From Nemertoderma westbladi (Eukaryota; Animalia; Xenacoelomorpha), in NCBI GenBank assembly GCA_032718475.1, contig JAUCBJ010007923.1, forward strand, positions 1 to 37,003: a DNA stretch of 37,003 nucleotides. Direction: 5' to 3'. Positions within the stretch are counted from its first letter, which is position 1; every line of letters begins with the position of its first letter. The position numbers and the translations under genes are program-made. The notes under the pieces were generated by a model. It made no database searches. It saw nothing but the letters and a program-made list of their open reading frames with translations, and was not told the origin of the DNA. Positions 1 through 37,003 of this stretch are shown one piece after another.

Positions 1-2
1 AT

Positions 3-10124: not shown

Positions 10125-11447
10125 AACTCAGGGACAGGATGGCCGGCTAGAGATCGGGCCACAGCAATGAACGGGAACATCACGGGAATGTAGACGAGAG
10201 ACAACCCGCAATACCATCTAGAGTTATTCGCCCATCGCCTGAAAGGTTAGACAGCGTTCGATCCTTGCTACCTAAGTGTAAGACCAAAAGATCAAAAGAG
10301 GTAGACGTAGTGACACGCTGCAAGCCTAAAATTACATCATAGGGACTGTACTGTCTTGATTCAGGAAAACCCACAGTAGACCTTCACATTCCTACGGGGG
10401 GAGGGAGAGAGAGCAGAGATACTAGTACGCAGATAGGACGTAGGCACACCGGTACAAGGCATACACATTGGTTAGGGTGCAGCAAACTGTACGCTTAACT
10501 CTTGCTAAGTACAGGTGCGTCTGTGACTATTTGCCGTGCAACGGTGTCCATTACATTAGAACTTGTAGGCTAGGGGGGTTGCTGTGTTTTCACCTGAATT
10601 GGGATTGTACCGTTCAGGCGGTAGGGCAGTTTACACTAGGCGCAAATAAATTGAGGCTATCAGGGATATACTAACATCTACCGTGTCCCCGCCAACGCCC
10701 TAATAGGAAGTTACCCGGACTACCTGGGTGACTAAAATTCTAGATAGGAGCCAGGATAGCTATTAGTACCCGTACGCCTACAGTAGTAAACTAACACATC
10801 TCTTCTTAGTATCAGGGACCTGGTACCTAAAATTGCCGAATTCTGGGCGTAGTATTAACCTTATGCCTGAATTTGAGTCCTGGAAATACGCAAGAGGGGA
10901 AGGAACCTTATCATTCGTGAGTATTGGACCTACAAGTTATAAAATTAGAATATTCGTAAAATGCACACCGTACCCAGTAATTATATATGTGAAGGAGCAA
11001 AACTGTTTTGACCATTCAGAATTAACACACGCGCGTTAGAAATTATTTACACCTCGAAATATATAAAATTAACTTTGTCCGTACTGTGCTTTGCCCGCTA
11101 GTTAGACATCTCCAAATATCTGCCTCTGTACCTAGCTAGCGTCCCTTTGCCCAACCATATAAATCACACCGCGGCAAAGTATACGAGCCCCTTAGTCCGT
11201 CAGTGAGTCAGCCTGATTTTAGGATTCGCTGCGCGGGATTTGTTTTATCGAAGTTTGTCTGCTCGTAGACTGTTTTCTGCCTCACCGGTTATAAGAGATC
11301 GATACTGCAATATATTCGCTTACTTAGGGTTTACTGTTTTGGTGAGAAGGTCGGATTTATGATTTGATTTACAAACTTTACAGTAGGATATTGCAGGTAT
11401 TGTTACCGTCTCTTCCGATAGTAGGAATAGGCGTATCTCTTCCAATT

Positions 11448-13684: not shown

Positions 13685-16600
13685 CACTGAAGCATTGGCC
13701 GTAAGACGCCGATGTAGTTGCGCGATTCTCTTTTCCGCTAAGGGTCGGTTATTTATAAAGTTGGGTTTTCGCCGTCGGAATGGAAGACCAATCTCATAGC
13801 GACCTTGATCTTTAAGAAAACGGGTAGTCATTTCCTGAATCTGCTTGGCTCTCTCTTCCTCGACGGACAAGGCCTTGTCGTAGGAATTAGGCTCTACAAC
13901 TTCTTGAGTAAAGAATCGCACGGCGTGTTCATCGCGAATTTTATTGTTGTATCGCTCTACCACTTCGTTCAATTTGTCGTTGTAGGTGAATTATCCGCCA
14001 TGATTGATGAGATGGCACAGGTTTACTTGGTTTAACCAAGTTTCATTTTCGTTGAGGAGGTCGATTGTATTTTCCTCGTCGTATAATTGGTTAATATCGT
14101 CATTGTCTGATGAGTATGTTATTCCCTCAGTTGTGGTTTCTCCCTCACTGATTTCTTCTTCACATTCATTCACCTGATGTATCCTCTCCTCAGGGAGTCT
14201 TTCCATGAGTGTTCTACGGGAAGGTCCAGTGAAGTACCAACCTACTCTCATTCTTCCCGCGTACGCTTGTAATGGTTGCGGTCAAGCAGGCCGTTTTTCT
14301 AATGTCTCAAGCGCCTCGTGCGCATTTTGGCCGATTAATATCTGCACCCCTGGGTAGTCGGTGTTGAATCTAGGGATATTATGCTGCTGGGTAAAATGGT
14401 CTTCATCCCAGTTGTAAGGTTCCACTTGGCTGGTAGCAAAGTTCTTTATCGCCACCATTTTAATGACCTTATGCTATGTTCTCCTAGTTCATCCTGGGGA
14501 GTGGACAACACACCCACATAGTAATCTGTAGCTACTGTGGATTTCCAAACCTGCATAATTCCTGAAAGGTTCAACTTAGTTCGGAACTTGGGTTGTCCAG
14601 CAAAGATGTCTTCGGCTAGTTCTTTGTCGATGAATCTACCTGTGCTGCCGGAGTCAAGGAGGGCGTTTACTATGAGACTCTTCCCTAGTCCGTGGACTCT
14701 CAGCTGCACTACAGGGAATTCCTGGATTCCGACGTTGGAAGTCGGCACTTTCCAAGATGGTTGCCGATCCGGAATAGTCAGTCGAGGATCTTCTTCGCTT
14801 GTTTCAGTCTCATACGTAAGTGCTCGATACACTGCGGTGTTTATCATATAACAGGATTCGTTTTTGTGGGAGAAGGATTCGTCCGTGTAGAATCCTTCCA
14901 TCTCAGAGCTGTGGTCAGTGTCGTTCACATCACTGAATTGGACATGTAGTTCGGGCTCACTTACCTGACTCGTGCGGGTTCTGTCAAATTCTGTGTGCAG
15001 CAAGATATGATGTTTTGCGCCGCACTTAGCACACCTCGCGTCTGAGTAACAGGTCCGCCGTTGGTGTCCTTGTCTGAGACAATTATAACACAACTGCTTA
15101 TCCCACATGACATCATGTCTATCCTTTAGGGATTTCTTCAAGAATTCATCACATCCACTCAAGCGATGGGGCCCGTCGCACAATGCACATTTGGGTTTGA
15201 TGTTACTTCCTTTAACCTGTGTGGTGTTGTGCACACTTGTTCTTTCCTCAGGTTTTCTTCCATGAATTATCTTAGGAGACGTGGGAGGAGTTTTTGTTAC
15301 CTGTTCTCTCCTGTCACTGGTTTGAGACTTAAATTTACTTACGTCTTTCTTCGATTTGTTTACATAATAAGATCTTTCAGTGTCTTTCCCGCTGTTCTCC
15401 TCGTGGGAGGTTTGGCTTTCGCCATCGTCTGTATAACACACTTTTGTTACCTTTCCCCTAGAAACGGGTTTTTCACTCTCCGGTGTCTTCTCTCGGGACC
15501 GCTTTAGGAGCTGCAATCTTACCTCTCCATTTAAGAATGACATGAGATCAGCCATGGTAGGGTCTCTTTGTTGCTGGTCCATCATATAGAGAACTCTTGT
15601 CCCAATGCGTACCCACTCCACCCTTTGGCAAAGTACTGTAGATGCCACGGCTCCAACAACCATAGAACTCTGATATTCATGAGACTTACCTAACCAATCT
15701 AGTTGTCTACAGATCTCCTGAATCTCATCGGAAAACTCTATAATCCCGCTGCTAAGGAACTTTCGGGGCGCTACTAATTTCGCATACAAATACCTAGCTA
15801 TGTTAGTCCTATTACCATACCTGATGTTTAGTGTATCCCAAACTTGTCTTAATCCATCTGGATGTCCAATAAACTTTAACGCCATTAACTTGGGAGGTCC
15901 TTCCAAGCATTAGATGAGAAATCTAAGTTTCTCTCCGTTGGATAGTACAGAGTTCTGTATGTTATCTTTGTAATATTCATTAAAAGATAACCATTTCATC
16001 TCATCTCCATTGAACTTGACGATTTCTCCCACCTTTACCGCTTGGTGGGCTTCGGTTCTAGCCATTTGATGCGTAAAACTTTCTTGGGCCATCGTATTAT
16101 TTAATATCGAGTTATCTGTATATAAATTTCTCGGATTATGATCAGGTCTATATGGAATATCATTATCAACAGGTTTATAATTACCCTTAATAGGGTTTAC
16201 TATAGGAGTTTCTACTTCACTAGCAGTATAGATGCGTGTAGGCTCCACACCTTGCGCATGAAATACTTCAGACCTAACTGGTTGACACATTCTTACAGGC
16301 GGTGGTGGTATACCCCTTTGTATATTTACCAATTTATTGCGTTCTAACGCGATACTCTGCTGCACTTCTTGCAACTCTAACCTACCCTCTCTTACTGTTC
16401 CCTTTAACTGCTGAACAGTCCCCTCCAACTCTCGGACCTGTTGGGAGGAACGTGCATGATTTTCCTCTATCTGCCCAAGCAGGAGATCCATCCCCCGCCG
16501 TCGCTCATCCACCCACTCTACCGCCAAAGCGGGAGCCGCCAACATAGTAGCGGGTAGACGAGGGACGACGGGCGACAATTCTTTGATGTCTTGCTCAGCG

Positions 16601-17721
16601 TCCAGGACCGGGATTGATTCAGGGGCTATTCTAATGGGCACAGGTAGTTTAGTACTGTGCAAAGGGAATTTAGAGTTAGGTTCTGGAAGTACAGGGGTCT
16701 CTATCACAGAGGGGGTGGCTTCGAGAACAGGCCTAATAATTTCAGGCTCATCTACTATAGTAGGGAGTCTTTCTTCCATAATAATTTGGTCTGTAGGCGC
16801 AGGATTACTTAAATCTACACTAGCTAGTTGCCTTCTCACTGCGGGAGGCAAATTAGGCAATTTCTGTCGGTGTGGCACTCTTCTACGTCTGCTGGGACGA
16901 GATTTATTTCCTCTACCTTCAGGATCCGTTGTATCGCCTTCATCAGAGGAGGTAAATCCCTGTCTCCTGGGAGTAGATCGACTCAGCATCTGCATCTGAG
17001 AAGCTATTCTCTGTTTATTTAAGTAATCTTGCTTCACTTGAAGATTTTCCAACTCTAGTTGGGCTGTCTCTTCAGATGCCTTCTGTTCTGCTTCTACCAC
17101 TGCCTCTGCCGCTTTTCTTTCTGCTTCTGCCGCTGCCACTTTTCTTTCAATTTCTGCTGCTGCCGCTTTTCTTTCCGCTTCTGCCGCTGCCGCTTTTCTT
17201 TCAATTTCCGCTGCTGCCGCTTTTCTTTCCGCTTCTGCCGCTGCTGCTTTTCTTTCCGCTTCTGCCGCTGCTGCTTTTCTTTCAATTTCCGCTGCTACCG
17301 CTTTTCTTTCCGCTTCTGCCACTGCCACTCTCCTTTCAATTTCCGCTGCTGCCGCTGCCGCTGCCTTTCTGTCTTCTATTCGTGTTTTCCTTAATTGTTC
17401 TTCCTGTTCCCTAGTGATGAGGATGCTTTCATCATATTTAGCCTGCTCAGCGGCTAACATTTCCGCATCTAACGAGTCCAACACAGATTTGGCTCCCTCA
17501 CTATTAGGGTGAAGTCCAGCTAGCCTTCTCCTTAGCTCTTTGTCACCTATGAATCGTTGATAGTCTGAAAGATAGATGTCAATAGCGTCTTTCTTCTGAG
17601 GTTTTTCGGATGTAACTTCGCTTTCCACCTGAGAAAAGGTAGCGTCTGTTGATTCTCCATGGGTCATGCGCTCGGTTAGCTGAGCTTTCCATTGTGTCGT
17701 TCCTTGGACTTTAAGACTCAC
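13685..17721 (-). pseudogene. Bel/Pao gag-protease-early pol, disrupted
   Basis: ORFs 15910-17721, 14446-15906, 13991-14251 and 13682-13972 are consecutive pieces broken by in-frame stops (15910, 13991) and a frameshift near 14450; truncated before RT. Confidence 0.9.
17095..17370 (-). repeat. 27-bp coding tandem repeat, AAAAE(A/I)ERK
   Basis: About 9-10 units in the gag N-terminal region. Confidence 0.92.
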
Positions 17722-19299: not shown

Positions 19300-19390
19300 T
19301 ATTGTTTACATGGTAACCCATGACGGCGTTAAGTAAAGTCCACTAAGGGGACATTACTTAACGCCGTCATTGGATACCATGTAAACAATA
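19300..19390. repeat. Near-perfect inverted repeat
   Basis: 42-bp arms, 3 mismatches, 7-nt loop. Confidence 0.92.
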
Positions 19391-20360
19391 GGTGTAAATT
19401 TGCCTGACAGCCAGATAGGCCTACTACATTACCTACCGGTAGGCGGGGTATAGCTATTAATAATCAGTAGGGCCTAGCTATATTATTATATCATGGCTCC
19501 AAAAAGCAAGCAAACAGTCGGCCAAAGCCGGAGGCGACCCAAAGGCTCCTCTTTCGATAGCTGCTACCCGAGGGTAGGGGTGGGCGATACTCCTATCCCA
19601 AGATTTGGCCATGGCTCCCAACGCCACCATAAATATAAGCTAACTTATATATAACATAATTTATGTCATTTTTACATTTATTTATACAGCAACTAATATA
19701 AATTGTGCAGTTTCTATCACTTATAATGTATATGTACAATCATTTCGTAATGTTAAAATTCTGGAATAAAAACTACATACATACTTGTTGCAAAGTACTT
19801 TACAGTGTTCTGATCCTCTCGGCTATATTTTCACTCACTCACTAACGTTCATTCGTGTAACAAAGCCACTCGGATCATCACACTGTAAAGTGCTACTTTA
19901 CACACAAGTATTTAAATAGTTATTACATTGTTTTATATTGCAAAGTCGCGAAAGATGTTTGGTTTGTAATAAAAAAATGAGACAAGACAATCTATCTCGT
20001 AATATGGAAACACATTGAAAGGCTAAATTAATGGAACCGTTACCAAAAAAATTAAAAAAACAGGATGATATTTATAGTGAAGATGAAAAGAAAGAGAGAG
20101 ATGAGCGTGAAATATTAAAGATAAAACATTCAATGGAAAATAAATGGCATAAAGTTATGAATTATTTTGAGAGGGATACAAAAACAGTTACCCCTAGTAC
20201 CTTTAGTAAATGAAGAAAATTTGAGTGAGAAAGATGAAGAAGAAGAGGATGATGAGATGGAGAATGAAAATAGTGACAGACAGGATGAAGTTTAAGAGAG
20301 TGAGGAAGTGCAAACGAATCTTATTGTTTATATGTTTTTAACATCCATGAAATTGTATAA

Positions 20361-20503
20361 ATTATTAAGTAATTTAATCAGGACTTAGGATGATCCAACT
20401 CAATAGCAAATGGAGCGGATAAAATGAATTCGCCACCAGCGGGGATCGAACCCGCGTCTCCCGATAAACGTTCAGGTATGCTTACAATTACACCACAGAC
20501 TGA
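20361..20503 (-). mobile_element. tRNA-derived SINE-like unit, copy 1
   Basis: Minus strand: degenerate A-box, stem CCTGA-ACGTTTA-TCGGG, T-arm GCGGG-TTCGATC-CCCGC; 3' tail shared with copy 2. Confidence 0.75.
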
Positions 20504-20692
20504 CACATATACGTATATATACGTATAAATTCTTAAGTAATTTAAATAGGACTTAGGATGATACAATTAAGATTCGTTTGCAGTACAGGTCATAACTGCT
20601 ACTGTATTAGAATACAGATTAAATCCATCCGTTAGGGTGGACTGTATTCAATGGAAACCATGAGGTAGCTTACCACTTATAGCAAATCAATC

Positions 20693-20826
20693 TCCGTGTT
20701 GTAGTGGTTAGCATACCTAAACGTTTATCGGGAGACGCAGGTTCGATCCCCGCTGGTGGCGAATTCATTTTTTCCGCTCCATTTGCTATAGAGTCATCCT
20801 AAGTCCTGTTAAAATTACTTAATAAT
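20693..20826 (+). mobile_element. tRNA-derived SINE-like unit, copy 2
   Basis: GTAGTGGTTAGCAT A-box region, GGTTCGATCCC B-box, T6 run; inverted copy of 20361-20503. Confidence 0.75.
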
Positions 20827-21545
20827 ATCTATTAATATTATTATATTTTAATATAATAATATTACTATATATAATACTATTACTTTCTTCTGTATAATAA
20901 TATGCTATTATGCTATATAATGATGTTATCATATTATGTAATTATTTAAATATAATAATTTAATTAATTTACCAATTTATTCAGTATGTTCTATTTTATT
21001 TTCTTCTTCATTATTTCCTATTTTATTCTTTCAATTTGAATATATGAATTATAAATGGGAAAATGTTTGACGTGGGCCCCATAGCATTGTTAGTGTGAAG
21101 CACAAAAGTATTCAACATAATGTATACACTATGTATAAAAAAGTGAGTATAACAAATTATGATTCAACAATGTGCAACATGCGGAATAACCAGTATAGTG
21201 ATTATCTACAGAGCAACACGAGACGGATGAATTGAATAAGCAAGCAATGGCTGGACTCTGAAATAATTTTCAAAAAATGTGTGCTTTGCAATCTCCTAGC
21301 CTAACAAGGACTATAAAAATATAGTCAAAAAGGTAGCCAATTGTATAATGTATACCTTACTATTATGTTTGTTAGCGGGTGCCACTGACCTTCATTTCCT
21401 GTAATATTTAACAAAGTAAGTGGACACATTTTGACATTTACTTAGAAAGACCAAAAATTAACTGTAATATTTTCTCTAATATTTATGCATAACAAATGCT
21501 CCTGAAATTATCAGATCATTATAAATATTATATATATTGTAAATG

Positions 21546-21607
21546 AATATTTTGATCGAAATCTAACCTAAGTAGGGCTACTTAGGTTAGTTTTCGATCG
21601 AAATATT
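21546..21607. repeat. Palindrome
   Basis: 30-bp arms, 2 mismatches, 2-nt spacer. Confidence 0.9.
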
Positions 21608-21954
21608 GATGAAATATAATTTTCTACCTTAAATGGGAGTGATATAATGTTGTTGGTAAATAATGTGAATAAGTCAATAAATACCTACATAACATTCCCC
21701 ATTTAATGTGATGTATATAAGAATTATTTTATTGTCGCAACCACTGAGAGAGTTAATGATTAATTACACAAAAAGTAATGGGGAATTGAATGCACCTGTT
21801 GTTACTACCTCTCTTATTTACTACCTCGTTTGAATCGTAAAGTTGTTATAAAGTACAGTGAAATTGATTATATACCAACCTGAAGAATGTAGTCAACAAT
21901 GCAATAGGTAGAATAGTGAGCCGTTGCTGTAGTACATAGGATATACTACAAACA

Positions 21955-23959: not shown

Positions 23960-25774
23960 ACTACTATTTCTAATTCCACTGGCAGTGTATATTTATGCGA
24001 TTTCTCAGATCATGATTACACAGTAACATCAATTAAACATAAATTTAATAAAATTGTAAAGAAAGACGAGTGGATTGAGTATAGGAATTTTACTGATTTT
24101 AACAAATGTGCCTTTTTAAATGAAATTGAGAATATTATCTGGAATGATTTTTATCTTGAGGATGATATCAATAAACAATTTGAGATTTTTGAAAATCAGA
24201 TAGTGGAAATACTGAATAAATATGCCCCTATGAAACGTAAACTAGTCATTCCTAATAAAAATATGATGAGAGATGACTGGGCAACAGATGAACTTAATGA
24301 GTTAAAAACCAATAAATATAAAAAAATTTCACTTTGGCGCCGTACAAAAAGTGATAACGATTACAAAGCATACAAATTATTGCGAAATAAGTTTAATAAT
24401 CTGAACAATAAACTAAAGAATAATTTCGTAAAAAATAAATATCTGAGTGCCAGGGACAGCAAATCAATGTGGATAATAATTAATAAAATTATAAATAATA
24501 AAGCGAATGCCTCCATTAACTGTATCAAATACAGAGGTATTTTAATAACTATCAGAAAACAACTATCAAATGCCATGAATGAAACTTTTCTAAATTTAGG
24601 GAACTTTTTTAATTGCTCATCGACCAATATGGGCATTTATACCCTACCTGTCGACTCCGTACAAAACCGAGCTCATTTTTCATTTAAATGCGTGAGTCTA
24701 TTAGAAGTAGACTATAGAATTGATCAATTAAATGAAAATAAGTCCTCTGGACCTTGTAAAATACCTACAAAAATAATAAGGGAATTTCGATCTCAGATTT
24801 CGGGGCCGTTGCATTTTCTAATAAATCAATGTTTGACGAAATCTTTATTCCCAGACCATCTAAAATTGTCGAATATTTCCTCAATTTATAAAAAAGCTGA
24901 TCTATTTGATGCTGCGAACTACAGACCAGTTGCAACAACGTCTCCTTTTGCCAAAGTTGTTGAAAAAATTATGTGTTCTCAAATACTTGAATATGTCAAA
25001 GATAATAAGCTTTTATACCCAAAACAATTTGGTTTCTGAAAAGGATTTTCTACTGTTGATGCTGTTACTTACTTAACTGAGAATTGGCGTCAACATTTGA
25101 ATGACAACAAATTTGTCGCAGCCGCATTTTTAGACCTAAGCAAAGCTTTCAACTCTATAAATCATTGAATCACAGACTCAAACATTTAGGCTTCCACTCG
25201 ACTGCACTGAACCTCATACAAAATTACCTATTGAAAAGGAAGCAACGTGTTAAAGTAGAAAATACTTTTTCTGATTGGCTAACTGAAACAGGGGGCGTTC
25301 CCCAAGGTACCATTTTAGGGCCTCTATTATTTATGCTATATACCAATAACATTCCAGAACAACTCACAAATGTTTAAATTATACAGTATGCTGATGATAC
25401 AGTTATTTATGTGGCTGACTCAGATCCAGAACAAGCTACAAAATTGTTAGAGTCGAATGTTCAGAAAATTCAAAAAATATTTAATGATTGTCATTTGAAA
25501 CTGAACCCGGACAAAACGGAATTTCTCCTTTTATCTCCGAAGCAAATCAGCCCAGAAAATAGAGCTGATTTCTCATCCATAAAATTAAATGTAGGCTGCC
25601 CTGAACCTATTCCACAATCTCCATCAGTAAAATATCTGGGAGTGAACATTGATAACGAGCTAAATTGGAAAGATTACATAGGGAAAATGATCCAAAAAAT
25701 GACTCTTACCATTTCTTGTTTACGAATAATAAAGGGTCAATTGCCCAATAAAACTAAATTGCAATTATATAAAA
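23960..25774 (+). pseudogene. Non-LTR retrotransposon (CR1/L2/Jockey-like) ORF2 fragment
   Basis: End of AP endonuclease (FSDH at ~24002), NYRPV, QFGF*KG, FLDLSKAF, GVPQGTILGPLLF, QYADD, KYLGV; stops and frameshifts; cut off at 25774. Confidence 0.93.
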
Positions 25775-25784
25775 AGTAGTAGGG

Positions 25785-26110
25785 TCTTCCTCCTCTCTGT
25801 GACAGTTAGACCTAACTGACACCCATTGGGTGTCATATGACACCCAATTATCACCCTATGGGTGTCATTGGGTGTCATTGGCGCCAGACTGTCTGGGTGA
25901 CACCTCCCAATTAGGCTAATTAGACCCTAATTGACAGGTGTCATCAATTAATTAGTATAATTAAACCCTAACAGGTGTCATATGACTCCTAATTAGGGTT
26001 TAATTGATTATCCTAATTAATCAGACTGATTAGCGCCCTGACACACAATGGGTCATCAGTGATGTCTAACTGTCGCAGAGAAGGGGGAAGAGGGTGTCAT
26101 AAGTGACACC
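25785..26110. repeat. Subterminal fold-back with nested palindromes
   Basis: 25785-25835 is an imperfect inverted repeat of ~26039-26091; inner IR aattaaaccctaa/ttagggtttaatt; many TGACAC/GTGTCA and TAATTA motifs. Confidence 0.88.
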
Positions 26111-26795: not shown

Positions 26796-26890
26796 AGCCA
26801 ATCAGCGGGCTTCATTTCTACTGCTGCGTTCTGATTGGCTCATTTAAGAGACAAGGGCCTCCCTTACTAACCGAATTGCTATTTAATACG
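26796..26890 (+). promoter_or_regulatory. Putative Pol II promoter for the polymerase transcript
   Basis: Inverted CCAAT pair agccaatcag (26796) / ctgattggct (26831); TATA-like TATTTAA at 26880. Confidence 0.5.
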
Positions 26891-27037
26891 TCCCCACTAA
26901 TATATTAGGTCATTATTTCAATTGCAAGTTACGATTAACATCATTTACCATTATTTTGTTTTCGAATTTAATATTATTTATTTAAGAATATTTATTTGTT
27001 ATCGTCAGTCAACTATCCAGTTGTATAGTTGTATTAT

Positions 27038-27854
27038 TGTCATTTCGCTGCGTTATCGCTCATCGTCGACAACAAACTTTCCGCGTATCCACCGCGTAAT
27101 ATTTCAATATTTCTAATTTCCGATACCATTCCGTTCTATCGGTTGATAAACTCTCTCGTCGTCCACGTCAACCAACTTCCTTGTCACCAATGAACTTCCA
27201 AACTTCTTCTTTCCGTGAATATTTACTAACACCGTAAGTAAAAACTGCCTTCCATCTAGCTATACTTTCGACGCCGCTAGCAAACAATTTACATTTAATG
27301 TCTACCGGTACAACAGTATTGCAGTAGGCTCATTATTAATTACTGTCAGACTGCGGTGGTACCGATAGCCTAAACCGTGATCGAAGCATTCGATCAATAG
27401 GCCTACATCCGCCTATTTGCTTACAGTATTTTTTATCTTTTTACAAATAATCAACTTATTTTTCTAGTGTCATTTCGCCGCGTTAACACTCATCGTCGAC
27501 AACAAACTTTCCGCGTATCCGCCGCGTAATATTCCAATATTTCTAATTTCCGATATCGGTACCATTCCGTTCTATCGGTAAATAAACTCTCTCGTCGTCC
27601 ACGTCAACCAACTTCCTCATCGCCACCGAACTTCCAAACTTCTTCTTTCCGTGAATATTTACTAATACCGTAAGTAAAATCTACCTTCCACCATCTGACG
27701 ATACTATCGATGCCGATAGCAAACAATTTACATTTAGGCCTAATGTCTACCGATACAACAGTATTGCAGTAGGCTCATTATTAATTACTGTCAGACTACG
27801 GTGGTACCGATAGCCTAAACCAGGATCGAAGCATTCGATCAATAGGCCTACATC
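27038..27854 (+). repeat. ~430-bp duplicated non-coding exon-intron unit
   Basis: 27038-27409 resembles 27468-27854; GTAAGT donors at 27234 and 27670; near-identical TTTTCTAG acceptor blocks end at 27467 and 28384. Confidence 0.85.
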
Positions 27855-28391
27855 TGTCTATCTGCTTGTCTACCTGACTACCGGTACCCCATCATTCGAG
27901 TTAGCCTAATGCCATCATAGTAACGATATAGACCCTACTGAACAACACTGAATACTGCAGTTTTCACTATATATCCTACTGACTAACTGAGTTCTCACAC
28001 AGCGATTAGCTAGGCCTATCGTTGATTTGTATTGGTTAACGCTACCGGTACGTCTGACTTCTGGCAGACTTTTCACTAGCACTACTGCTCTGACTGACTG
28101 ACTGTTGTTTATAGACCCTCTTTCCACGAATAATAACTGGCATCGCTTTTGTGTCTTGGTTATCGCCACTATCTAACCGCTGGTATACTAACACTTCCAC
28201 ACTAGATACTGCCGACTGCCTGCTTTATGTTTCACTGACTGATTGCTACAATACAGCAATAGGCCTAACTATATAAACACAGTATTGTTGCCTAGTAACC
28301 GATTAATACCTACTGTTTTACTTTATTTTTAGCAAGTATACAGTATTTTTTATCTTTTTATAAATAATCAACGTATTTTTCTAGATTCAAG

Positions 28392-29186
28392 ATGCCTATG
28401 TCTACCAATAAAGATAGCTGCCCCATCTGCGACAAAGAGATGCGGAGTGATAATCTAAAATCACATATTAAAATTCATTTCGCGCAATATAGATGCGACT
28501 GTTGCCCGACTTGGTCTTCGGAAAAGAAGACGCTGGTTGGCCATCTTGTTTCGTGTCCTCAGGGGGGAACAGGATTTAGTTACGTAAACGAGCCAGCCGA
28601 TTGCCGCTGCGGGGATTCGCTCACCCTGTCATCCTTTTCTGAGCATGAATGCTACACTCGACTTTTTTCGCGGAAACGCAAAACTCCGACTACCTCCCAC
28701 TCATCCCCCATCAACTCTACTCCAGAACAAGTCGGCGGCGGCGGCTCCAATAATGAACCTTCAACTTCACGAGATTCTATTTCCCCAAACAATCCATTTC
28801 AACCCCCCTCCAACGGAAGCGCACACGGACGACTGTTTACCTATAACAACGACCTCGCAGAAACAAGACTCGATGCTGAATTAACATTAAACGAAAATTT
28901 TCCACACATTCAAGAACACGTTAGTAGCCATTTACGTAGTGCCATGGGAACTTTTTTAAGAGTCTGGCTTACAATCAACATCGTAATGGAGCGTGAAACG
29001 AGCGAGGGATTTCAAATTGAATCTTTCTGTTTTAAATCTAGCGGTAACAATAATCAAATTCTAAATAATAGCGACTTTAATAACTGGTTTTCTAGCGCCG
29101 TCAATCGTATCGATCAACTGTTAAAGCGTGTTTCTCTGCCTCGGCTCGGGTTGGCGCATAATAGCCATCGAGCGAATAACTATTGA
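28392..29186 (+). CDS. pPolB N-terminal part (C2H2 finger and terminal-protein region), frameshifted relative to the main ORF
   Basis: CPICDKEMRSDNLKSHIKIH; a +1 shift near 29125 joins it to the GSGW motif typical of Polinton pPolB N-termini. Confidence 0.75.
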   Translation: MPMSTNKDSCPICDKEMRSDNLKSHIKIHFAQYRCDCCPTWSSEKKTLVGHLVSCPQGGTGFSYVNEPADCRCGDSLTLSSFSEHECYTRLFSRKRKTPTTSHSSPINSTPEQVGGGGSNNEPSTSRDSISPNNPFQPPSNGSAHGRLFTYNNDLAETRLDAELTLNENFPHIQEHVSSHLRSAMGTFLRVWLTINIVMERETSEGFQIESFCFKSSGNNNQILNNSDFNNWFSSAVNRIDQLLKRVSLPRLGLAHNSHRANNY

Positions 29187-32100
29187 GATTGCGCGGTCCC
29201 AACGCAACCCCTATTTAAAGGGTCAAGGCTTCAATAATTCTAAATTATTATTAAATAAAAAATGTACCGTAAGCGTAGACTGCCCGCTGGGGGAATGCTT
29301 TAAATACGCAGTATTGGCCGCCGCAAATTATAAGAAAATTGATAGAAAACAAAATAATATCAAAAGAATTTCAACGTTTACTCCTTTTCTAAACATGTTT
29401 GATTTTTCCAATTTAAGTTTCCCGGTGGACAGAGTAACTGGTATTCCCCAGTTTCTGAAAGCCAACCCTATATACTGTATAAACCTTCTTTATTGGAGTA
29501 ATACGGAAGAACTCTCCATTCTAAGTCAACCAGATAGCGCGCACTGTTCCGGTAAAACTGTACTAAACTTATTATTTATCGAAGCCACAAGCAAAAACCC
29601 TGCCCACTACGTAGCTATTACTAACATAGATAGACTAATAAATTCAAAAGATTCAGACGGTAACAAGACGCACTGCGAACGCTGTCTCAGAGGCTTTTAC
29701 ACTGACAAATCACTGGGAGAACATCGAGAGCGCTGCTATACGGGTAAACGCCAACTCGAGTATATGCCCGAAAATCTCTTGGTTAAATTTGACAGGTACG
29801 ATAAGACTCTATCCCCGCCTTTCTGTATATACGCCGACATTGAAACTATTCTAGAACCTACAAACAATATTAAACTCCCACAGAAACATATAGCTAGCGC
29901 GGCAGCCTTTTATACAGTACCAAATCAGAAATTAATTAACCCTCCTAAAACAGATGTTCAAATTTTCCGCGACGATGGCAGTAACCACGTAATGCGCGAC
30001 TTTCTAACCGCTATGGAAAGTCATTGTAGGGAGTTATACGATTGGTCCATTTCTAGTACAAACACACGTGCCCCCATGCAACTCACTACTAGCCAACAAA
30101 CTGACTTTAATAACGCTACACAATGCTACGTCTGCAACTGTAATTTAACCCCCGATTCTCATAATTTAAACCTCAATGACAATCTCAGCACCAAAGTCCG
30201 CGATCATGATCATTATAGCGGGGAGTATCGAGGGGCTGCTTTCGTCAGCTGCAACAGGAAACTTTCCCTAAAACGGAATAATTTTTATATTATATTTCAT
30301 AACTTGAGGAAATTCGATATGCATTTACTACTAAAAGAAGGAATGACCGATAGTTCTAGAACACACTGGAAAATGACCGTAATACCAAAAAACACCGAAA
30401 CTTATATTCACCTTAAAGTTAGCTTTCCAATCGATCCGAGTACCCCAACAGCCAACGCTAAAGAAAGTATCTCCATTAATTTTCTAGATTCCTATCAGTT
30501 TATGACTGCCAGCCTAGATAATCTTAGTAGCTATCTCACTAAAAATAACAGTAACCTAGCAACAGCCATACCCCATACACTAGCTCAAATGACCCAACTC
30601 TATCCCAACATTAGCGATAACACAATAAAAAACAAGGGCGTATTCCCATATTCCTACATTCAAAATATTTCAAACCTACACGAAACTACACTCCCCCCAT
30701 TAGAAAGCTTCTATAATGATCTCAAATTGGAACAATGTAGCGCAGAAAACTATCAGCGCGCGCTTACTACTTGGGATGAATTAAACTGCCTAACAATCTT
30801 CGACTATATGATTGGCTATTTGGTTCTAGACGTTACCCTATTGGCTGATACTTTCGAGCAGTTCCGATCCCTCTGTCTTACTAATTATGGACTCGAGCCC
30901 GTAATGTACTTCACTGCCCCTGGATTAACTTACGACGCAGCGCTGAAATTCACGCAATCAGAAATTCAATTACTATCAGACGCTTCCATCTACTCGGACT
31001 TTGAAACAAATATTAGGGGTGGTCTAGTTTTCTTGAATACACATTCCGTAGACGCAAATATCCCCGATAAACCCGACTATGACTCCAGTCTCCCCAAGAA
31101 ATATCTAATTCCCATCGATGCGAATAACCTTTACGGCTGCGCCCTGAGCCAGAAACTTCCCTATGCTAATATTAAACTCGTAACTACCCCCATAGACCTA
31201 GCTACAATAGACGCGAGTGGGGACACTGGTTATTATTGCATAGTTGATCTACATTATCCGAAAGAAATTCATGATTTGACCGCCGATCTGCCTCTAGGAG
31301 CAGAGAAGATGTCAGTCCCTAAATCCTTTCTTAGCGAATACATGGAAGATCTTTGGGAGCATTACAATCTCACCGATACGGCTACCTGTAGACCATACAA
31401 CGATACCTGTACTAAGCTACTACTACATCAGTTTAATAAGGTTGAATACGGTATCCATATTAAGCTACTTCAGCTCTATTTGAAGCTCGGTCTTAAACTT
31501 ACACAAGTACACAGGGTCTACTCTTTCTCACAAAAATATATTTTCAAGGACTACATTAGTTTTAATACGAATAAAAGACAGTCGACAAATAACCCATTCG
31601 AGATCCTATTTTATAAGTTGATGAACAATGCCTTGTATGGGAAATGCCTCCAAAAGGTTAGAGACCGCGTTTCTTTCAGGTTATGCAATAGCGACGAACA
31701 ATGCGATTTGCTCTTAGCCAAGCCCAACCACGAATCGTTTGTTGTCTTTACCCCCAACTTGAGTGGACATACTTTCACTAAAGAGGCTGTTTGCCTAAAT
31801 CAGGGCGTGTTCATCGGTTGCACTATACTAGATCTATCTAAGCTACAGATGTACGACCTATTTTACAACAAACTGAAACCTCTAGAACAAAAACTGGATT
31901 GCCAGATTCGCTGTCTAGCTGGTGACACGGATTCTCTAATGCTAAGCGTAACTAATACACCACAGCTAACCTTTCTACGGGCAATGTTTGAGGGTGGTTT
32001 CCTAGATACTTCCAACTACAGTACAACACATCCACTCTATACCATTAAACACAAAGCGGCTCTCGGCTTTGTAAAAGATGAGAGCTGCAGTTTGCAGTAT

Positions 32101-32445
32101 AAACAGTGGGTTTTCCTTAAACCAAAGGTCTATAGTTTTCAATCCTATGATGCCCCAATCAAGAAAACCGCCAAAGGTGTATCTAGATCGGTTGTCGCTA
32201 AGCAACTAACACACGAGGATTATGCAGACTGTTTTGAAAACGAGGCAATGCTCTTCCGCTATAACTCTACCTTCACTTCTAGAAAGCATCAAATTTTTAC
32301 TGGTCATGTCTATAAGAAGGCACTAACGCTCTGGGATACGAAATCATATTGGAGTAGTAAATATAGCAGCAAACCATACGGGCACTATAGCACTAAGCTT
32401 GTTAGACCGGCGAAACGAGTAGTAATCCCCCCTACTAGAATTTAA
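29128..32445 (+). CDS. polB: Protein-primed family B DNA polymerase with inserted HNH/endonuclease VII-like domain
   Basis: Exonuclease YADIE, FHNLRKFD, FLDS; polymerase IDANNLYG, KLMNNALYGK, GDTDS; CYVC...RDHDHYSGEYRGAA..CN. Confidence 0.96.
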   Translation: MFLCLGSGWRIIAIERITIEIARSQRNPYLKGQGFNNSKLLLNKKCTVSVDCPLGECFKYAVLAAANYKKIDRKQNNIKRISTFTPFLNMFDFSNLSFPVDRVTGIPQFLKANPIYCINLLYWSNTEELSILSQPDSAHCSGKTVLNLLFIEATSKNPAHYVAITNIDRLINSKDSDGNKTHCERCLRGFYTDKSLGEHRERCYTGKRQLEYMPENLLVKFDRYDKTLSPPFCIYADIETILEPTNNIKLPQKHIASAAAFYTVPNQKLINPPKTDVQIFRDDGSNHVMRDFLTAMESHCRELYDWSISSTNTRAPMQLTTSQQTDFNNATQCYVCNCNLTPDSHNLNLNDNLSTKVRDHDHYSGEYRGAAFVSCNRKLSLKRNNFYIIFHNLRKFDMHLLLKEGMTDSSRTHWKMTVIPKNTETYIHLKVSFPIDPSTPTANAKESISINFLDSYQFMTASLDNLSSYLTKNNSNLATAIPHTLAQMTQLYPNISDNTIKNKGVFPYSYIQNISNLHETTLPPLESFYNDLKLEQCSAENYQRALTTWDELNCLTIFDYMIGYLVLDVTLLADTFEQFRSLCLTNYGLEPVMYFTAPGLTYDAALKFTQSEIQLLSDASIYSDFETNIRGGLVFLNTHSVDANIPDKPDYDSSLPKKYLIPIDANNLYGCALSQKLPYANIKLVTTPIDLATIDASGDTGYYCIVDLHYPKEIHDLTADLPLGAEKMSVPKSFLSEYMEDLWEHYNLTDTATCRPYNDTCTKLLLHQFNKVEYGIHIKLLQLYLKLGLKLTQVHRVYSFSQKYIFKDYISFNTNKRQSTNNPFEILFYKLMNNALYGKCLQKVRDRVSFRLCNSDEQCDLLLAKPNHESFVVFTPNLSGHTFTKEAVCLNQGVFIGCTILDLSKLQMYDLFYNKLKPLEQKLDCQIRCLAGDTDSLMLSVTNTPQLTFLRAMFEGGFLDTSNYSTTHPLYTIKHKAALGFVKDESCSLQYKQWVFLKPKVYSFQSYDAPIKKTAKGVSRSVVAKQLTHEDYADCFENEAMLFRYNSTFTSRKHQIFTGHVYKKALTLWDTKSYWSSKYSSKPYGHYSTKLVRPAKRVVIPPTRI

Positions 32446-32459
32446 TTTAATTTTTCTAG

Positions 32460-32975
32460 AATAAGAAATTGAACAACAAAATAGAAATAACCAATAAACA
32501 GTTTACCGGAAAAAACATTGCCAAATTTGAACTAGATAAAATTTCACAGCAAATTATAGGTCAAAGTAGCTTAAAACCAAACATGTTTATCTACAAAGGT
32601 GACGATTCAACTTTAATGCTATTTCCCAGCGGCGCAGTAACAATTGTAGGCCTGTGCAATAATTTAGCTAGTGAATTGCTTTATTTAAAACAAACTATCG
32701 ATATGCAATTACAAAATTTGAAACTTAATACCGAAACACGAACTATTATTTTTCCAAGTGTTAATTTTAAATTATTCATGAAAAAATGTGGACATCATAC
32801 AATTAATAATAAAGCAATATTTATTAGCTATACCCCCGAATTATTTTGCGCGATTAGAATATATATAGGACGTGCATATTTCAGTGTATTTCATAGTAAT
32901 AAAATCGTTTCCATGTGTACTGCCGGTGAATTCCCCGGATCATTATCTATTTTACAAACTTTATTATTAAATTAG
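32460..32975 (+). CDS. Divergent TATA-box-binding protein (TBP)-like protein
   Basis: ~170 aa with two TBP-like repeats: STLMLFPSGAVTIVG (cf. TALIFSSGKMVCTG) and SYTPELFCAIRI...SVFHSNKIV (cf. SYEPELFPGLIY...LIFVSGKVV). No ATG at the start; preceded by acceptor TTTTTCTAG ending 32459. Confidence 0.75.
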   Translation, partial: NKKLNNKIEITNKQFTGKNIAKFELDKISQQIIGQSSLKPNMFIYKGDDSTLMLFPSGAVTIVGLCNNLASELLYLKQTIDMQLQNLKLNTETRTIIFPSVNFKLFMKKCGHHTINNKAIFISYTPELFCAIRIYIGRAYFSVFHSNKIVSMCTAGEFPGSLSILQTLLLN

Positions 32976-33043
32976 TTTATTTACTATGGTATACATGAAA
33001 GTTTACTATATTATTTATTTTGTGTTGGTTTTTATTTTTCCGT

Positions 33044-34075
33044 GAGTAGGGTTTGAATCCGTGACCATCCGTGTTACCCACTTTTTATAATTGCATTAGT
33101 AGGACTCGAACCCTGGTTTAACTTATTTTGTGTTGGTTTTATAATGGTCGCGAGTAGGGCTTGAACCCGTGACCTTCTATTTATTTTCCATAAAACGGGA
33201 TACGAGAAGGGGTCGAACCTGCGAGCATATATTTTTCCTATTTTGTGTTTAGTTTAGTTACTCTAGTTATTCTATGTTTACTTTTTATATTTTCATGATT
33301 AGGATTCGAACCCTGGTTTATCTTATTTTGTGTTGGTTTTATAATGGTCGCGAGTAGGGATTGAACCTATGACCTCCTGTTTATTTTCCATAAAAACGGG
33401 ATATGAGTAGGGATTGAGCCCGTGACCTTCTGTTTTTCCTATTTTATGTTTAGTTTAGTTACTCTAGTTATTCTATGTTTACTTTATTTTGTGTTGGTTT
33501 TATATTGGTCGCGAGTAGGGATTGAACCCGTGACCATCTGTTTATCCTATTTTATGTTTACTTTTTATATTTTTCCATAAAACGGGATACGAGAAGGGGT
33601 CGAACCTATGACCATCTGTTTATCATATTTTGTGTTTAGTTTAGTTACTCTATGTTAAAGTGAATTTTCACATTATATTTTCATGATTAGGATTCGAACC
33701 CTGGTTTAACTTATTTTGTGTTGGATTTATAATGGTCGCGAGTAGGGATTGAACCTATGACCTCCTGTTTATTTTCCATAAAACGGGATACGAGTAGGGA
33801 TTGAGCCCGTGACCTTCTGTTTTTCCTATTTTGTGTTTAGTTTAGTTACTCTAGTTATTCTATGTTTACTTTTTATATTTTCATGATTAGGATTCGAACC
33901 CTGGTTTAACTTATTTTGTGTTGGATTTATAATGGTCGCGAGTAGGGATTGAACCTATGACCTCCTGTTTATTTTCCATAAAACGGGATACGAGTAGGGA
34001 TTGAGCCCGTGACCTTCTGTTTTTCCTATTTTGTGTTTAGTTTAGTTACTCTATGTTAAAGTGAATTTTCACATT
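33044..34075 (-). repeat. Array of 15 tRNA T-arm/B-box-like units, ~200-bp higher-order period
   Basis: Minus-strand GG(T/C)TC(G/A)A cores near 33044, 33101, 33146, 33197, 33301, 33346, 33398, 33507, 33584, 33689, 33734, 33785, 33889, 33934, 33985. Confidence 0.9.
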
Positions 34076-34259
34076 ATATTTGTGTTAAATTATAAATTTA
34101 TGTTACAATTATTATCTATAATATAAAAAACAGAAATATTCGAGTTATATTGCATATGAGCAATAAATTACAATATACGAGCTGTTAATTTTTCTTATTC
34201 TTACTAAACAAATGTTAATCTTCAAGTCAGTCCTTATTGGATCGAACTACAGTATAATA

Positions 34260-34886
34260 ATGAGTGGGCCTATAGATGTACGGTTTAGGTTTGGTGCCAC
34301 AATGTTAATGGCTGGCCCTTCTGGCAGTGGTAAAACTACATATTTGGAGCAAATATTACAAAATAGCAAGCAAATTTTTGACGCGCAACCATCAGAGATT
34401 ATTTGGATATATGGGCAAACTAAACCGATTGTGAAAGGTGTCAATATTACTACCTTAAATGAAATTCCGGAACACTTTAATCAAAATGTAAAAAGACAGA
34501 GTGTGATTATATTCGATGATTTAATGTCTGAGCTAGAGAATTCAAAGCAAATAACAATTTTATTTACCAAAGTCGCGCGCCATTCGCATTCTTTTGTTAT
34601 TTTTTTAACGCAAAACCTATTTCAGAAAGGAGGGGAAGCACGTACTCGATCTATTAACTCTACCTATTTTTTACTATTTAAGAATCCGCGTGATTTAACG
34701 CAGATCAGAACCTTAGCCTATCAGATGAACCCAAATAATCCAAAATTTTTAATTAGCGCTTACCACGACGTTACACAGCAAGCATTCAATCCGCTTTTAA
34801 TCGACTTTCATCAACAGACTCCAGAAAATCTGCGGATAAGGGCTAATCTATTCACGATGGAACATTGTGTTTATCAGCCTTTGTAA
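34260..34886 (+). CDS. A32/FtsK-like DNA packaging ATPase
   Basis: Walker A GPSGSGKT, Walker B IIFDD, ARH, LTQN, FKNPRD. Alternative start 34212. Confidence 0.93.
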   Translation: MSGPIDVRFRFGATMLMAGPSGSGKTTYLEQILQNSKQIFDAQPSEIIWIYGQTKPIVKGVNITTLNEIPEHFNQNVKRQSVIIFDDLMSELENSKQITILFTKVARHSHSFVIFLTQNLFQKGGEARTRSINSTYFLLFKNPRDLTQIRTLAYQMNPNNPKFLISAYHDVTQQAFNPLLIDFHQQTPENLRIRANLFTMEHCVYQPL

Positions 34887-34998: not shown

Positions 34999-35340
34999 AT
35001 GGATCTCAATATACGAAAACATAGGAAAGAATTAACATTCCTGAGAAATAGTAGCGCGGTTGCAAGAGGATTTTTTATACGACATAAAGCAAGCAACGAG
35101 TTGATTCGCCTTCTTGTTAATGTGACTCTAAATACTCTATTCGGAAATTTGCATATCAATAATCGAATTTTAAAGAAATTAGCACCCTTTAAAAATAATA
35201 TGCGTAAACTGAAAGCAAAAAAATCATTAACCTTTCAACGTAAAACACTATCTCAATTTGGCGGATTTTTGCCACTTTTATTGCCCCTGTTGCTTGGTGC
35301 CACAGAAATCGCAACAACCGTAGCTACCGCGCTTACGTGA
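34999..35340 (+). CDS. Basic virion core protein precursor, adenovirus pX-like C-terminus
   Basis: Lys/Arg-rich, then QFGG|FLPLLLPLLLGA resembling an adenain-type cleavage site plus hydrophobic helix. Confidence 0.7.
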   Translation: MDLNIRKHRKELTFLRNSSAVARGFFIRHKASNELIRLLVNVTLNTLFGNLHINNRILKKLAPFKNNMRKLKAKKSLTFQRKTLSQFGGFLPLLLPLLLGATEIATTVATALT

Positions 35341-35537
35341 TGTCTTTTAAAAAATTATATTTAGTAACACCCGAACAATATAATATAATAAAGTCAAAAA
35401 CAACTCCATTTTCCCAAAAAATAAAAACAACCAAAAAAAGAACGGTCATAAAAAGTCGAAATAGGCAAACAATAAACGAAAGAAAAGGAAGGGTGTTGAG
35501 GTTATTCGATTACACCCGAAAGAGTAGATATATATAA
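35340..35537 (+). CDS. Small basic hypothetical Polinton protein
   Basis: ATG overlaps the previous TGA; MSFKKLYLVTPEQY start, basic composition. Confidence 0.5.
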   Translation: MSFKKLYLVTPEQYNIIKSKTTPFSQKIKTTKKRTVIKSRNRQTINERKGRVLRLFDYTRKSRYI

Positions 35538-35612: not shown

Positions 35613-36681
35613 ATGACGAGCAAGATTGTGGACCGCAAGTTACGCAAAATTTACTACAGCGTTTCAAATGTTGCGGGATTTTCAAGTCAAAAAAAACTAA
35701 GTACTGCAACAAAAATCAAACCAGCTATAGTCAAAAAATGGTTGCAAGGTGAATCTAATTACACTCTACATGCACCGGCGCGAAAACATTTCCCTACGAG
35801 TCGCATGTATTTTTATGGTATAAGCGACACAATTCAAGTGGATCTGATTGATATGCAACAACATTGGGAAACAAATTCTGATTATGGATATATTTTGACC
35901 GCAATAAACTGCTTTAGTAAGCGTGGATGGGCTTTACCCCTGAAACGAAAAACGGGAAAAGAAATTAAGCGTGTTCTAGAAACAATATTTAATGATGAAA
36001 CACCTAGAAATTTGTGTACAGATCAAGGCTTGGAATTTGATAATAAACTGGTTTTGGATTATTTGAAACTAAAAAAGGTGAGGTACTATACAACCCGGTC
36101 TCAATTTAAGGCTGCAATCTGCGAAAGATTTAATAGAACTCTGAAAACGAAAATGTTCAAAATATTTAATCGACGCAAAAATTTTAAATGGCTTAAAATA
36201 TTGCCGGAAATACTAGTAGCCTATAATAAATCGAAACATCGTTCAATTGGTATGGCACCGTTACATGTAAATAAAACAAATGAGGATAAAGTACGTAAAA
36301 AACTATATGGAGACCTCTCTAAAATTAAAGTTTCCCCTCCAGTCTTTAAAATAGGAGACAGTGTGAGGTTAAATATTTCTAAAAATAAATTTGAGAAAGG
36401 TTATATTCAAGGTTGGACAACGGAAATTTTCACAATCGCGAGGATAAGAATGGATAGATTCCCGATCGCAATGTATCATGTAAAAGACGCCCGGCGTGGG
36501 CCGTGAGATTGAGGGAAGCTTCTACCCAGAAGAAATTCAGAGAGTTCAGCAAAAGAGCAACATATTAGCAATCGATAACATAGTAAAATCGAGAAACAGA
36601 GGAGCCGAGCTGGAATATCTTGTTAAATTTAAAGGTTATAAGCGCGCAACCTGGATAAAACAGTCTCAACTACGGAAATAG
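35613..36681 (+). CDS. Retroviral-like DDE integrase with C-terminal chromodomain (frameshift ~36495)
   Basis: QVDLIDM, TDQGLEF, ERFNRTLK, KGYIQGWTTEIF; +1 frame continues EIEGSFYPEEIQ...EYLVKFKGY...TWI. Confidence 0.92.
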
Positions 36682-36684
36682 ATA

Positions 36685-37003
36685 ATGATGGATACTTATA
36701 TAAGCCTATTCTGTAATGGGCCAACTGAAAAGTTTCCAGGGAATACATTGGCCAAATTTACAAATGACTTACCATATACGTTAATTCTGAGTGAAAACAT
36801 GGAAGTGGGACTGAGTGAGATACAGTATTCTAGTTCTTTCTATAATTTAGTCGAAGAATCTCAATTTATTGTTTATCGAGATATTCATCAGTCAACTATA
36901 ATAAATTTCATGCCGGGTTTATATGGGAGCATAGAAGCTATAGTGGATCGAATAAATAGAGAAAATGATCACCCCTCCCTACCAGAATTAATTTATTTAA
37001 AGT
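36685..37003 (+). CDS. Minor capsid (penton) protein, 3'-partial
   Basis: Not in the ORF track; manual translation MMDTYISLFCNGPTEKFPGNTLAKFTNDLPYTLILSENMEVGLSEIQY...PGLYGSIEAIVDRIN fits the Polinton penton N-terminal pattern; open to the window edge. Confidence 0.85.
   Translation, partial: MMDTYISLFCNGPTEKFPGNTLAKFTNDLPYTLILSENMEVGLSEIQYSSSFYNLVEESQFIVYRDIHQSTIINFMPGLYGSIEAIVDRINRENDHPSLPELIYLK

Follow-up and report, generated by a model that had tools for sequence, protein, structure and literature searches.

Polintons have been connected with the origins of adenoviruses and large DNA viruses, and the control of their transcription has been little described. Viral TBPs, by contrast, are already known, and a TBP label exists in the related MELD viruses: the Fig. 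5 legend of Starrett et al. (2021, PMC8502044; preprint 10.1101/697771), within the section on non-animal datasets, labels a TBP gene in MELD viruses that carry an adintovirus-like PolB. In one supplementary file of that article, TBP is not mentioned. According to PMC10675990, TBP genes occur in elements that putatively derive from mirusviruses, and not in PLVs. Term searches of PMC12220804, 10.64898/2026.06.19.733378 and 10.64898/2026.10.13.758929 returned no TBP, and among the open papers that our literature search covered, Starrett et al. alone link TBP to Polinton-type elements.

Here, we describe a TBP-like frame in a stretch of Nemertoderma westbladi DNA (assembly GCA_032718475.1, contig JAUCBJ010007923.1), where "the window" means the whole analyzed stretch of 37,003 nucleotides. 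The frame lies between the protein-primed PolB (pPolB) and packaging ATPase genes of a Polinton, whose features in the window are as follows:

25775..25780, plus strand: AGTAGT, probable Polinton left terminus, interrupting LINE-like reverse transcriptase sequence
26798..26914, plus strand: candidate left-end Pol II promoter, from motif match and spacing, with a presumed function
27035..27867, plus strand: duplicated leader-like region of about 430-440 bp, with GTAAGT donors at 27234 and 27670
28392..32445, plus strand: pPolB with a zinc-finger-like N-terminal part (PF03175, E 1.7e-17), frameshifted near 29130
32440..32459, plus strand: T-rich tract ending in TTCTAG, splice-acceptor-like, from sequence and motif counts
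32460..32975, plus strand: TBP-like frame of 171 codons plus a stop at 32973-32975, from the stop-free ORF, Pfam and a structure model
33008..34081, minus strand: tandem array with a 200-bp period and subunits of about 52-55 nt, between the TBP-like frame and the ATPase
34212..34886, plus strand: A32-like packaging ATPase (PF04665, E 2.6e-6, above cut-off)
34999..35340, plus strand: 113-aa basic protein with a pX-like GGFLPLL motif (PF05829, E 0.033, weak)
35340..35537, plus strand: 65-aa basic ORF whose N-terminus weakly resembles the ORF in the same place in metagenome locus L001 (E 0.029)
35613..36678, plus strand: retroviral-type integrase with chromodomain (PF00665, E 5.4e-5, below cut-off), frameshifted near 36500
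36685..37003, plus strand: start of a further ORF that runs past the window end, a putative "minor capsid" gene with 41% identity to its L001 counterpart in the same place and without a Pfam match

The Polinton context proposed for this frame by an earlier, sequence-only reading holds, with pPolB, A32-like ATPase and integrase genes around the frame and AGTAGT at the left end. AGTAGT is the rule for Polinton termini; of terminal inverted repeats with AG ends and a target-site duplication, only the left AGTAGT (25775) is seen, the right end of the element lying beyond the window. Major capsid protein and maturation protease genes were not detected in the window, past whose end the element runs, and a scan of the element's ORFs inside the window turned up no TFIIB-like gene, the right part of the element lying outside. 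Two frameshifts in core genes (pPolB and integrase) make the window copy dead as an element. CpG is not depleted in the element (observed/expected 1.09), the TBP-like frame is 29% GC, and depth in sequencing run X1 is about 2,000, which is not a copy number.

Other sequences in the window include a long open BEL/Pao gag-pol frame at 1-6773 (PF05380, E 6.8e-42), a 399-aa zinc-knuckle ORF downstream of it at 7460-8659, and, on the minus strand at 11446-17667, a second BEL/Pao-like gag region with a weak DUF1759 match. This last region contains a near-identical duplication, with copies spaced 3,138 bp apart, along with a 27-bp coding repeat rich in alanine and glutamate. Inverted repeats with 33-102-nt arms at 19300-19390, 20356-20875 and 21543-21610 are probably small non-autonomous elements, and a degraded LINE-like reverse transcriptase at 24230-25774 is interrupted by the Polinton. 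For this flanking LINE, an Atlas search gave hemichordate, mollusc, flatworm and cnidarian clusters, and the BEL/Pao and LINE content points to an invertebrate host.

Our preferred reading, which we hold with about even confidence, is that the frame is a TBP gene of a Polinton lineage that would supply the element with a private promoter factor, its mRNA probably being spliced and its translation beginning at a non-AUG codon or at a start that the leader provides. The homology, the position of the gene, its residue pattern, the absent ATG and the acceptor-like motif enter this reading as observations, the saddle fold as a prediction, and the functional steps as what we infer from them.

The 171-residue translation of 32460-32972 (plus strand) contains all four TBP motifs quoted in the sequence-only reading, and none of 20,000 shuffles of its DNA was stop-free. 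Pfam PF00352 matches residues 8-65 with an E-value of 3.2e-4; the score of 20.9 bits falls short of the 22.9 cut-off. A single-sequence phmmer search of the PDB returned no TBP and one unrelated match at E 1.4, and none of the 39 candidates from a single-sequence search of a 5.8-billion protein set was a relative of the frame. A search of 1.84 billion representatives gave two matches. The top one, P0002 (4,253 aa with eight repeated stretches, E 5.8e-8), was discarded as repeat-driven; the other, P0003 (E 4.5e-4 to the frame), is a clear TBP-family protein (E 8.8e-12) and was retained. An iterated search added P0004 and P0007-P0011, and two metagenome loci, L001 and L002, were recovered from 77 pattern matches; scans of viral contigs found no further TBP-like loci. 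Our working alignment, A5, comprises the frame and eight relatives at 20-28% identity, omitting P0005 and P0006 as near-duplicates of P0004, and P0011, which is archaeal (E 0.63).

All nine A5 members are matched by the Pfam TBP family, and the A5 profile matches 35 PDB sequences at E<=1e-3 (best E 4.9e-25), every one named TBP or TBP-containing bar one labeled ECU04_1440 protein. A profile built from the eight relatives without the query scores the frame at 60.0 bits, with about 30 bits for each half, compared with 16.2 bits for the best of 2,000 shuffles (1,852 reported) and -1.3 for the reversed sequence, a control that is not fully independent because the relatives came from query-seeded searches. 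An Atlas search gave TBP-family matches in 30 of 30 cases at 0.95, with a recognition value (1826) below the tool's line of 2300 that makes this weak evidence. We conclude that the frame is near certainly a TBP homologue. The divergent TBP-like protein of the sequence-only reading is thus upheld by the A5 profile's PDB matches, by the saddle model described below and by the Pfam search it had suggested, albeit below cut-off; its alignment of both halves to the TBP core agrees with the score of each half against the relatives' profile.

A single-sequence structure model of the protein was unusable (pLDDT 32.9), and the saddle model therefore rests on the alignment of TBP-like relatives. Built with A5, AlphaFold gives a model with pLDDT 83.9 and pTM 0.75, in which residues 11-30 average above 90 and two lobes, each beta-alpha-beta-beta-beta-beta-alpha, follow TBP topology. 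All 39 Foldseek rows listed through rank 44 are TBP chains (TM 0.68-0.79, best E 1.7e-8), and the next row falls to TM 0.32; VIA-align returns 38 TBP entries (Z 13.2-15.7, rmsd 2.0-2.7 A, 155-162 aligned residues) before an entry at Z 9.0. Viral TBPs are among the BFVD structure matches, from E 4e-9. The protein is thus predicted to keep the full two-lobed saddle, and the AlphaFold and Foldseek comparison proposed in the sequence-only reading comes out in favor of TBP. Since the model leans on A5, it shows that the protein is compatible with a saddle but does not count as evidence separate from the sequence comparisons.

We mapped functional residues through A5 and the A5-versus-PDB alignments, using position definitions in PMC7221094. 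The L5.1 phenylalanines of both lobes (F55 and F144) are present and invariant in all nine A5 members, and the C-lobe stirrup phenylalanine (F129) and the N-lobe central asparagine (N12) are also retained. Three of the four cellular intercalating phenylalanines are thereby matched in the alignment (F55, F129 and F144), in line with the sequence-only reading that some had been kept. The fourth, in the N-lobe stirrup, is probably lost: the stirrup is a two-residue turn in the model, with a gap of about five residues relative to cellular TBP, and F43, which falls in the fourth phenylalanine column by HMMER gap placement, lies in strand 3 of the model and is leucine in 7 of 8 relatives. At the C-lobe central asparagine position the protein has T91, no A5 member having asparagine there, and the proline that follows the C-lobe stirrup phenylalanine is replaced by C130. 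That proline favors T at the first TATA position, as stated in a passage of PMC12529657. The proline-to-cysteine and asparagine-to-threonine changes make an altered DNA specificity plausible.

Surfaces that contact cofactors have diverged as well. One TFIIB-binding glutamate, C.L3.4, is present (E127), and at the other, C.L3.2, the protein has T125 where all eight relatives have glutamate. Helix 2 (residues 66-82) contains one lysine or arginine and two aspartates or glutamates, so the basic patch bound by TFIIA, TAF1, Mot1 and Brf is gone. Several traits are common to the family, including the shortened stirrup of the N-lobe, the replacement of FPG by FCA (5 of 8 relatives) and the missing C-lobe asparagine (8 of 8). 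Passages of PMC7221094 describe viral TBPs as retaining the DNA face and losing the face that binds host regulators, and judged by sequence the residue pattern of the protein is that one.

The two metagenome loci place this gene in a wider context. In both, a TBP relative is followed by an ATPase, a small basic ORF, a further ORF and an integrase; the same next ORF follows the integrase in L001 only, since the L002 sequence stops partway through the integrase gene. The two loci are close siblings, so L002 does not count as independent of L001. Identity between the window and L001 is 38% for the ATPase, 42% for the integrase and 41% for the last ORF, the two small ORFs match weakly (E 0.015 and 0.029), and the L001 integrase passes its Pfam cut-off. 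From the TBP gene onward the L001 gene order equals that of the window, which argues that the TBP gene is a feature of the lineage and not a chance capture. In both loci (L001:1-423 and L002:2-493), the 5' part of the TBP gene overlaps an acidic frame that is rich in Ser/Thr and has a CCECK motif, and Pfam finds no match for the L001 copy.

While the TBP relatives in L001 and L002 begin with ATG, the window frame has no such start. Position 32460, from which the sequence-only reading had begun the protein, proves to be not a start codon; it is the base right after an in-frame TAG (32457-32459). Within 32301-32600 the only ATGs are at 32306, inside pPolB, and at 32583, which is codon 42 and the first ATG of the frame. 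Codons 7-39 encode strand 1, helix 1 and strand 2 of the model, core elements of the fold, so a start at codon 42 would lose part of the first lobe. A near-cognate TTG is present at codon 4 (32469-32471). Chance absence of ATG over the 123 nt occurs in 19% of shuffles. Three contigs from run X4, which belongs to another study, cover 32255-32483, 32488-32700 and 32704-33135 and span all but seven bases of the frame; they differ from the window by 2, 4 and 6 positions, with eight in-frame differences, none of which makes an ATG or a stop. As these contigs also lack an ATG before codon 42, its absence is not private to the window copy.

Just upstream, the T-rich tract ends in TTCTAG, a motif first spotted by eye, whose TAG doubles as the in-frame stop and which ends 9 nt before the codon-4 TTG. 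TTCTAG recurs ahead of the ATGs of pPolB, the pX-like ORF and the integrase, from which it is separated by 7, 7 and 17 nt, respectively. TTCTAGA lies within 25 nt of three of six ATG starts (P 0.008 against random ATG sets with any 7-mer allowed) and near four of seven starts when the TBP frame is included (P 0.0004; 0.005 against non-coding positions). It is absent from the other three of the seven, and an ATG-only test with 6-mers and a 40-nt window is not significant (P 0.20). TTCTAGA may also be an initiator motif, and a heat-shock element was considered. None of the six stronger donor-like sites upstream supplies a cis-spliced in-frame ATG. The simplest readings would have the mRNA spliced and the protein begun at the near-cognate codon 4, or else have a host spliced leader contribute the AUG, as is known in flatworms (PMC9851317). 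In one X4 contig, the sequence departs from the window at position 32453: the acceptor-like motif is the same, but what lies 5' of it is different DNA with a similar T-rich tract, and this single junction is a hint that the motif travels with the TBP gene.

The first ATG would yield a 130-aa form, and either this form or the full protein could in principle act, as the sequence-only reading suggested, in a dominant-negative way, as a decoy sitting on host TATA boxes or sequestering host factors to dampen host transcription. The retained DNA-facing phenylalanines, the lost cofactor surfaces and the presence in the sequence of an ATG-started 130-aa form fit such a role. We nonetheless consider it very unlikely, as folding of the shorter form is improbable when three elements of its first lobe (strand 1, helix 1, strand 2) are missing, and the surfaces needed to titrate host factors are those that have been lost. 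Moreover, the viral TBPs that have been characterized activate viral promoters (PMC12529657), and a general repressor would presumably harm an element that is inherited through the germline.

A real rival to our preferred reading is recent decay: a formerly functional Polinton TBP would have been abandoned, its start codon lost and the gene left drifting while the element relies on host TBP. We compared copies using 27 differences in four genes, among the 40 of 109 that are listed, with X1 and X2 covered in part. Among these, the TBP frame shows seven nonsynonymous differences to one synonymous between window and run contigs, compared with 9:10 for pPolB, ATPase and pX together (Fisher one-sided p 0.06); the 7:1 ratio is neutral-like (P 0.38), and the core genes are more synonymous than neutral (P 0.016). 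It is this ratio, together with the missing ATG and the lost glutamate, that gives decay its weight: the window and all three X4 contigs lack a start that the L001 and L002 relatives have, the glutamate is kept in all eight relatives, and Asn147 stands where all eight have glycine. However, 171 codons are free of stops and indels in the window and in the listed run differences, and for a frame at 29% GC and 20-28% identity to its relatives to be open, long-term selection is needed. The model is also a complete and confident saddle, and the acceptor-like motif remains intact immediately 5' of the frame. Eight differences carry little power, and private differences of a dead copy are in any case expected to be neutral. 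We regard decay as somewhat unlikely.

Next to the frame, the tandem array raises the question of a role apart from Pol II initiation. Most of its subunits carry a B-box motif resembling a tRNA 3' half, some end in CCA, and 11 of the window's 13 minus-strand GG[AT]TC[AG]A..C motifs fall within it. ARAGORN and Rfam find no match in the array, which by these searches does not consist of tRNA genes; the subunits are possible TFIIIC sites. The array is shorter in the run contigs and absent from L001 and L002. Binding of the TBP-like protein to this array or to the element's termini, in replication, packaging, insulation or Pol III-type transcription, would suit a gene that sits between replication and packaging genes, adjoins the array and has lost one TFIIB glutamate, and a passage of PMC12209930 describes a Giardia TBP with lost phenylalanines and a changed DNA preference. 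Against this, nothing like the array separates the TBP and ATPase genes of L001 and L002, the factor that binds B-boxes is TFIIIC and not TBP, the lost N-lobe patch is also the Brf1/2 surface (in the account of PMC7221094), and the relatives retain both TFIIB glutamates. Taken together, we judge a role of this kind to be quite unlikely.

Our preferred reading of a private promoter factor draws on the left end of the element. The candidate promoter there comprises CCAAT (26798), inverted CCAAT (26834), TATTTAA (26880) and an initiator-like TCATT (26910), with TATTTAA placed 30 nt before the initiator-like motif. TATTTAA occurs ten times on the plus strand of the element, and no TATA-like box common to the upstream regions of the element's genes was found. 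Downstream, within the duplicated region, a further copy of the acceptor-like motif, within TTTTTCTAG ending at 27467, and the donor at 27670 bound an ATG-free candidate exon of 202 nt (27468-27669). The promoter-like set and the duplicated donor region suggest a non-coding leader. The left terminal region at 25775-26110 carries repeated GGGTGTCA- and TGACACCC-like words in both orientations. Among the literature matches listed, judged by title and abstract opening, no paper has the splicing of Polinton genes as its subject.

We propose that the predicted saddle would bind and kink the A/T-rich minor groove through three phenylalanines and a more polar C-lobe face, features from which we infer a preferred box that differs somewhat from TATAAA; the left-end TATTTAA is a candidate binding site. 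Lacking the N-lobe basic patch, the protein would escape control by TFIIA, TAF1, Mot1 and Brf-type factors, as has been argued for other viral TBPs in part of PMC7221094. It would still engage host TFIIB and Pol II, probably more weakly than its relatives do, since one of the two TFIIB glutamates is threonine. A transcript from the left end would then be spliced onto the TTCTAG acceptors that precede several genes, with either a non-coding leader in cis or a host spliced leader in trans as the source, and translation of TBP would begin either at the near-cognate TTG of codon 4 or at an AUG contained in the leader. The fullest version of this idea, which we consider rather unlikely, is an adenovirus-like program in which a single left-end TATT-type promoter would be read by the element's own orthogonal TBP, a non-coding leader would be spliced before each gene, and the dose of the AUG-less TBP would be set by near-cognate initiation or by a host-spliced-leader AUG.

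A conserved TBP gene in animal Polintons would make it a testable claim that small elements carry part of the basal transcription apparatus. A bare 170-aa TBP that has lost its regulatory surfaces would be a natural minimal, and possibly orthogonal, promoter factor. The missing ATG, the acceptor-like motif common to several genes and the lost TFIIB contact together point either to an unusual limit on TBP dose or to a gene caught in the act of being lost.

Compared with cellular TBPs (PF00352; 1cdw, 1ytb and 1ais), the protein shares the predicted two-lobed saddle (Z around 15, rmsd around 2.3 A), both L5.1 phenylalanines, a C-lobe stirrup of the form Y-x-P-E-L-F and the N-lobe central asparagine (N12). 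It differs from them in its low identity (15-18%), an N-lobe stirrup that is about five residues shorter, the replacement of the C-lobe asparagine by threonine, of proline by cysteine and of the C.L3.2 glutamate by threonine, and the lack of a basic N-lobe helix, an N-terminal extension and an ATG from which the first lobe could be started. The surrounding element resembles Polintons/Mavericks (adintoviruses) in its pPolB, A32-like ATPase, pX-like ORF, rve integrase with chromodomain and AGTAGT left end; unlike here, section 3.2 of PMC8502044 does not name TBP when it goes through the other genes of adintoviruses. With MELD viruses it shares a TBP-like gene in a Polinton/adintovirus-type element, known in their case from the legend label alone.

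The TBPs of large dsDNA viruses (NCLDV), such as those of Heterosigma akashiwo virus and the asfarvirus B263R homologue, have the same fold, as the BFVD matches show, with the L5.1 phenylalanines kept; like the window protein, viral TBPs are described by Ravarani et al. (2020, PMC7221094) as having lost the N-lobe signature and being variable at C.L3.2. Nearly all of these viruses encode their own TFIIB according to the same paper, whereas none was detected in the part of the element within the window. KSHV ORF24, as portrayed in parts of PMC12529657, likewise has a more polar DNA face and has lost TFIIB-contacting acidic residues, and it reads TATTWAA, while TATTTAA stands at the element's candidate promoter. 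The window protein consists of no more than a 171-aa core. ORF24, by contrast, is large and has several domains, with all four phenylalanines kept; it makes direct contact with Pol II and depends on five additional viral activators. What sets the Nemertoderma gene apart from known viral-type TBPs is its missing ATG, the acceptor-like motif that it shares with other genes of the element, and its lost TFIIB contact.
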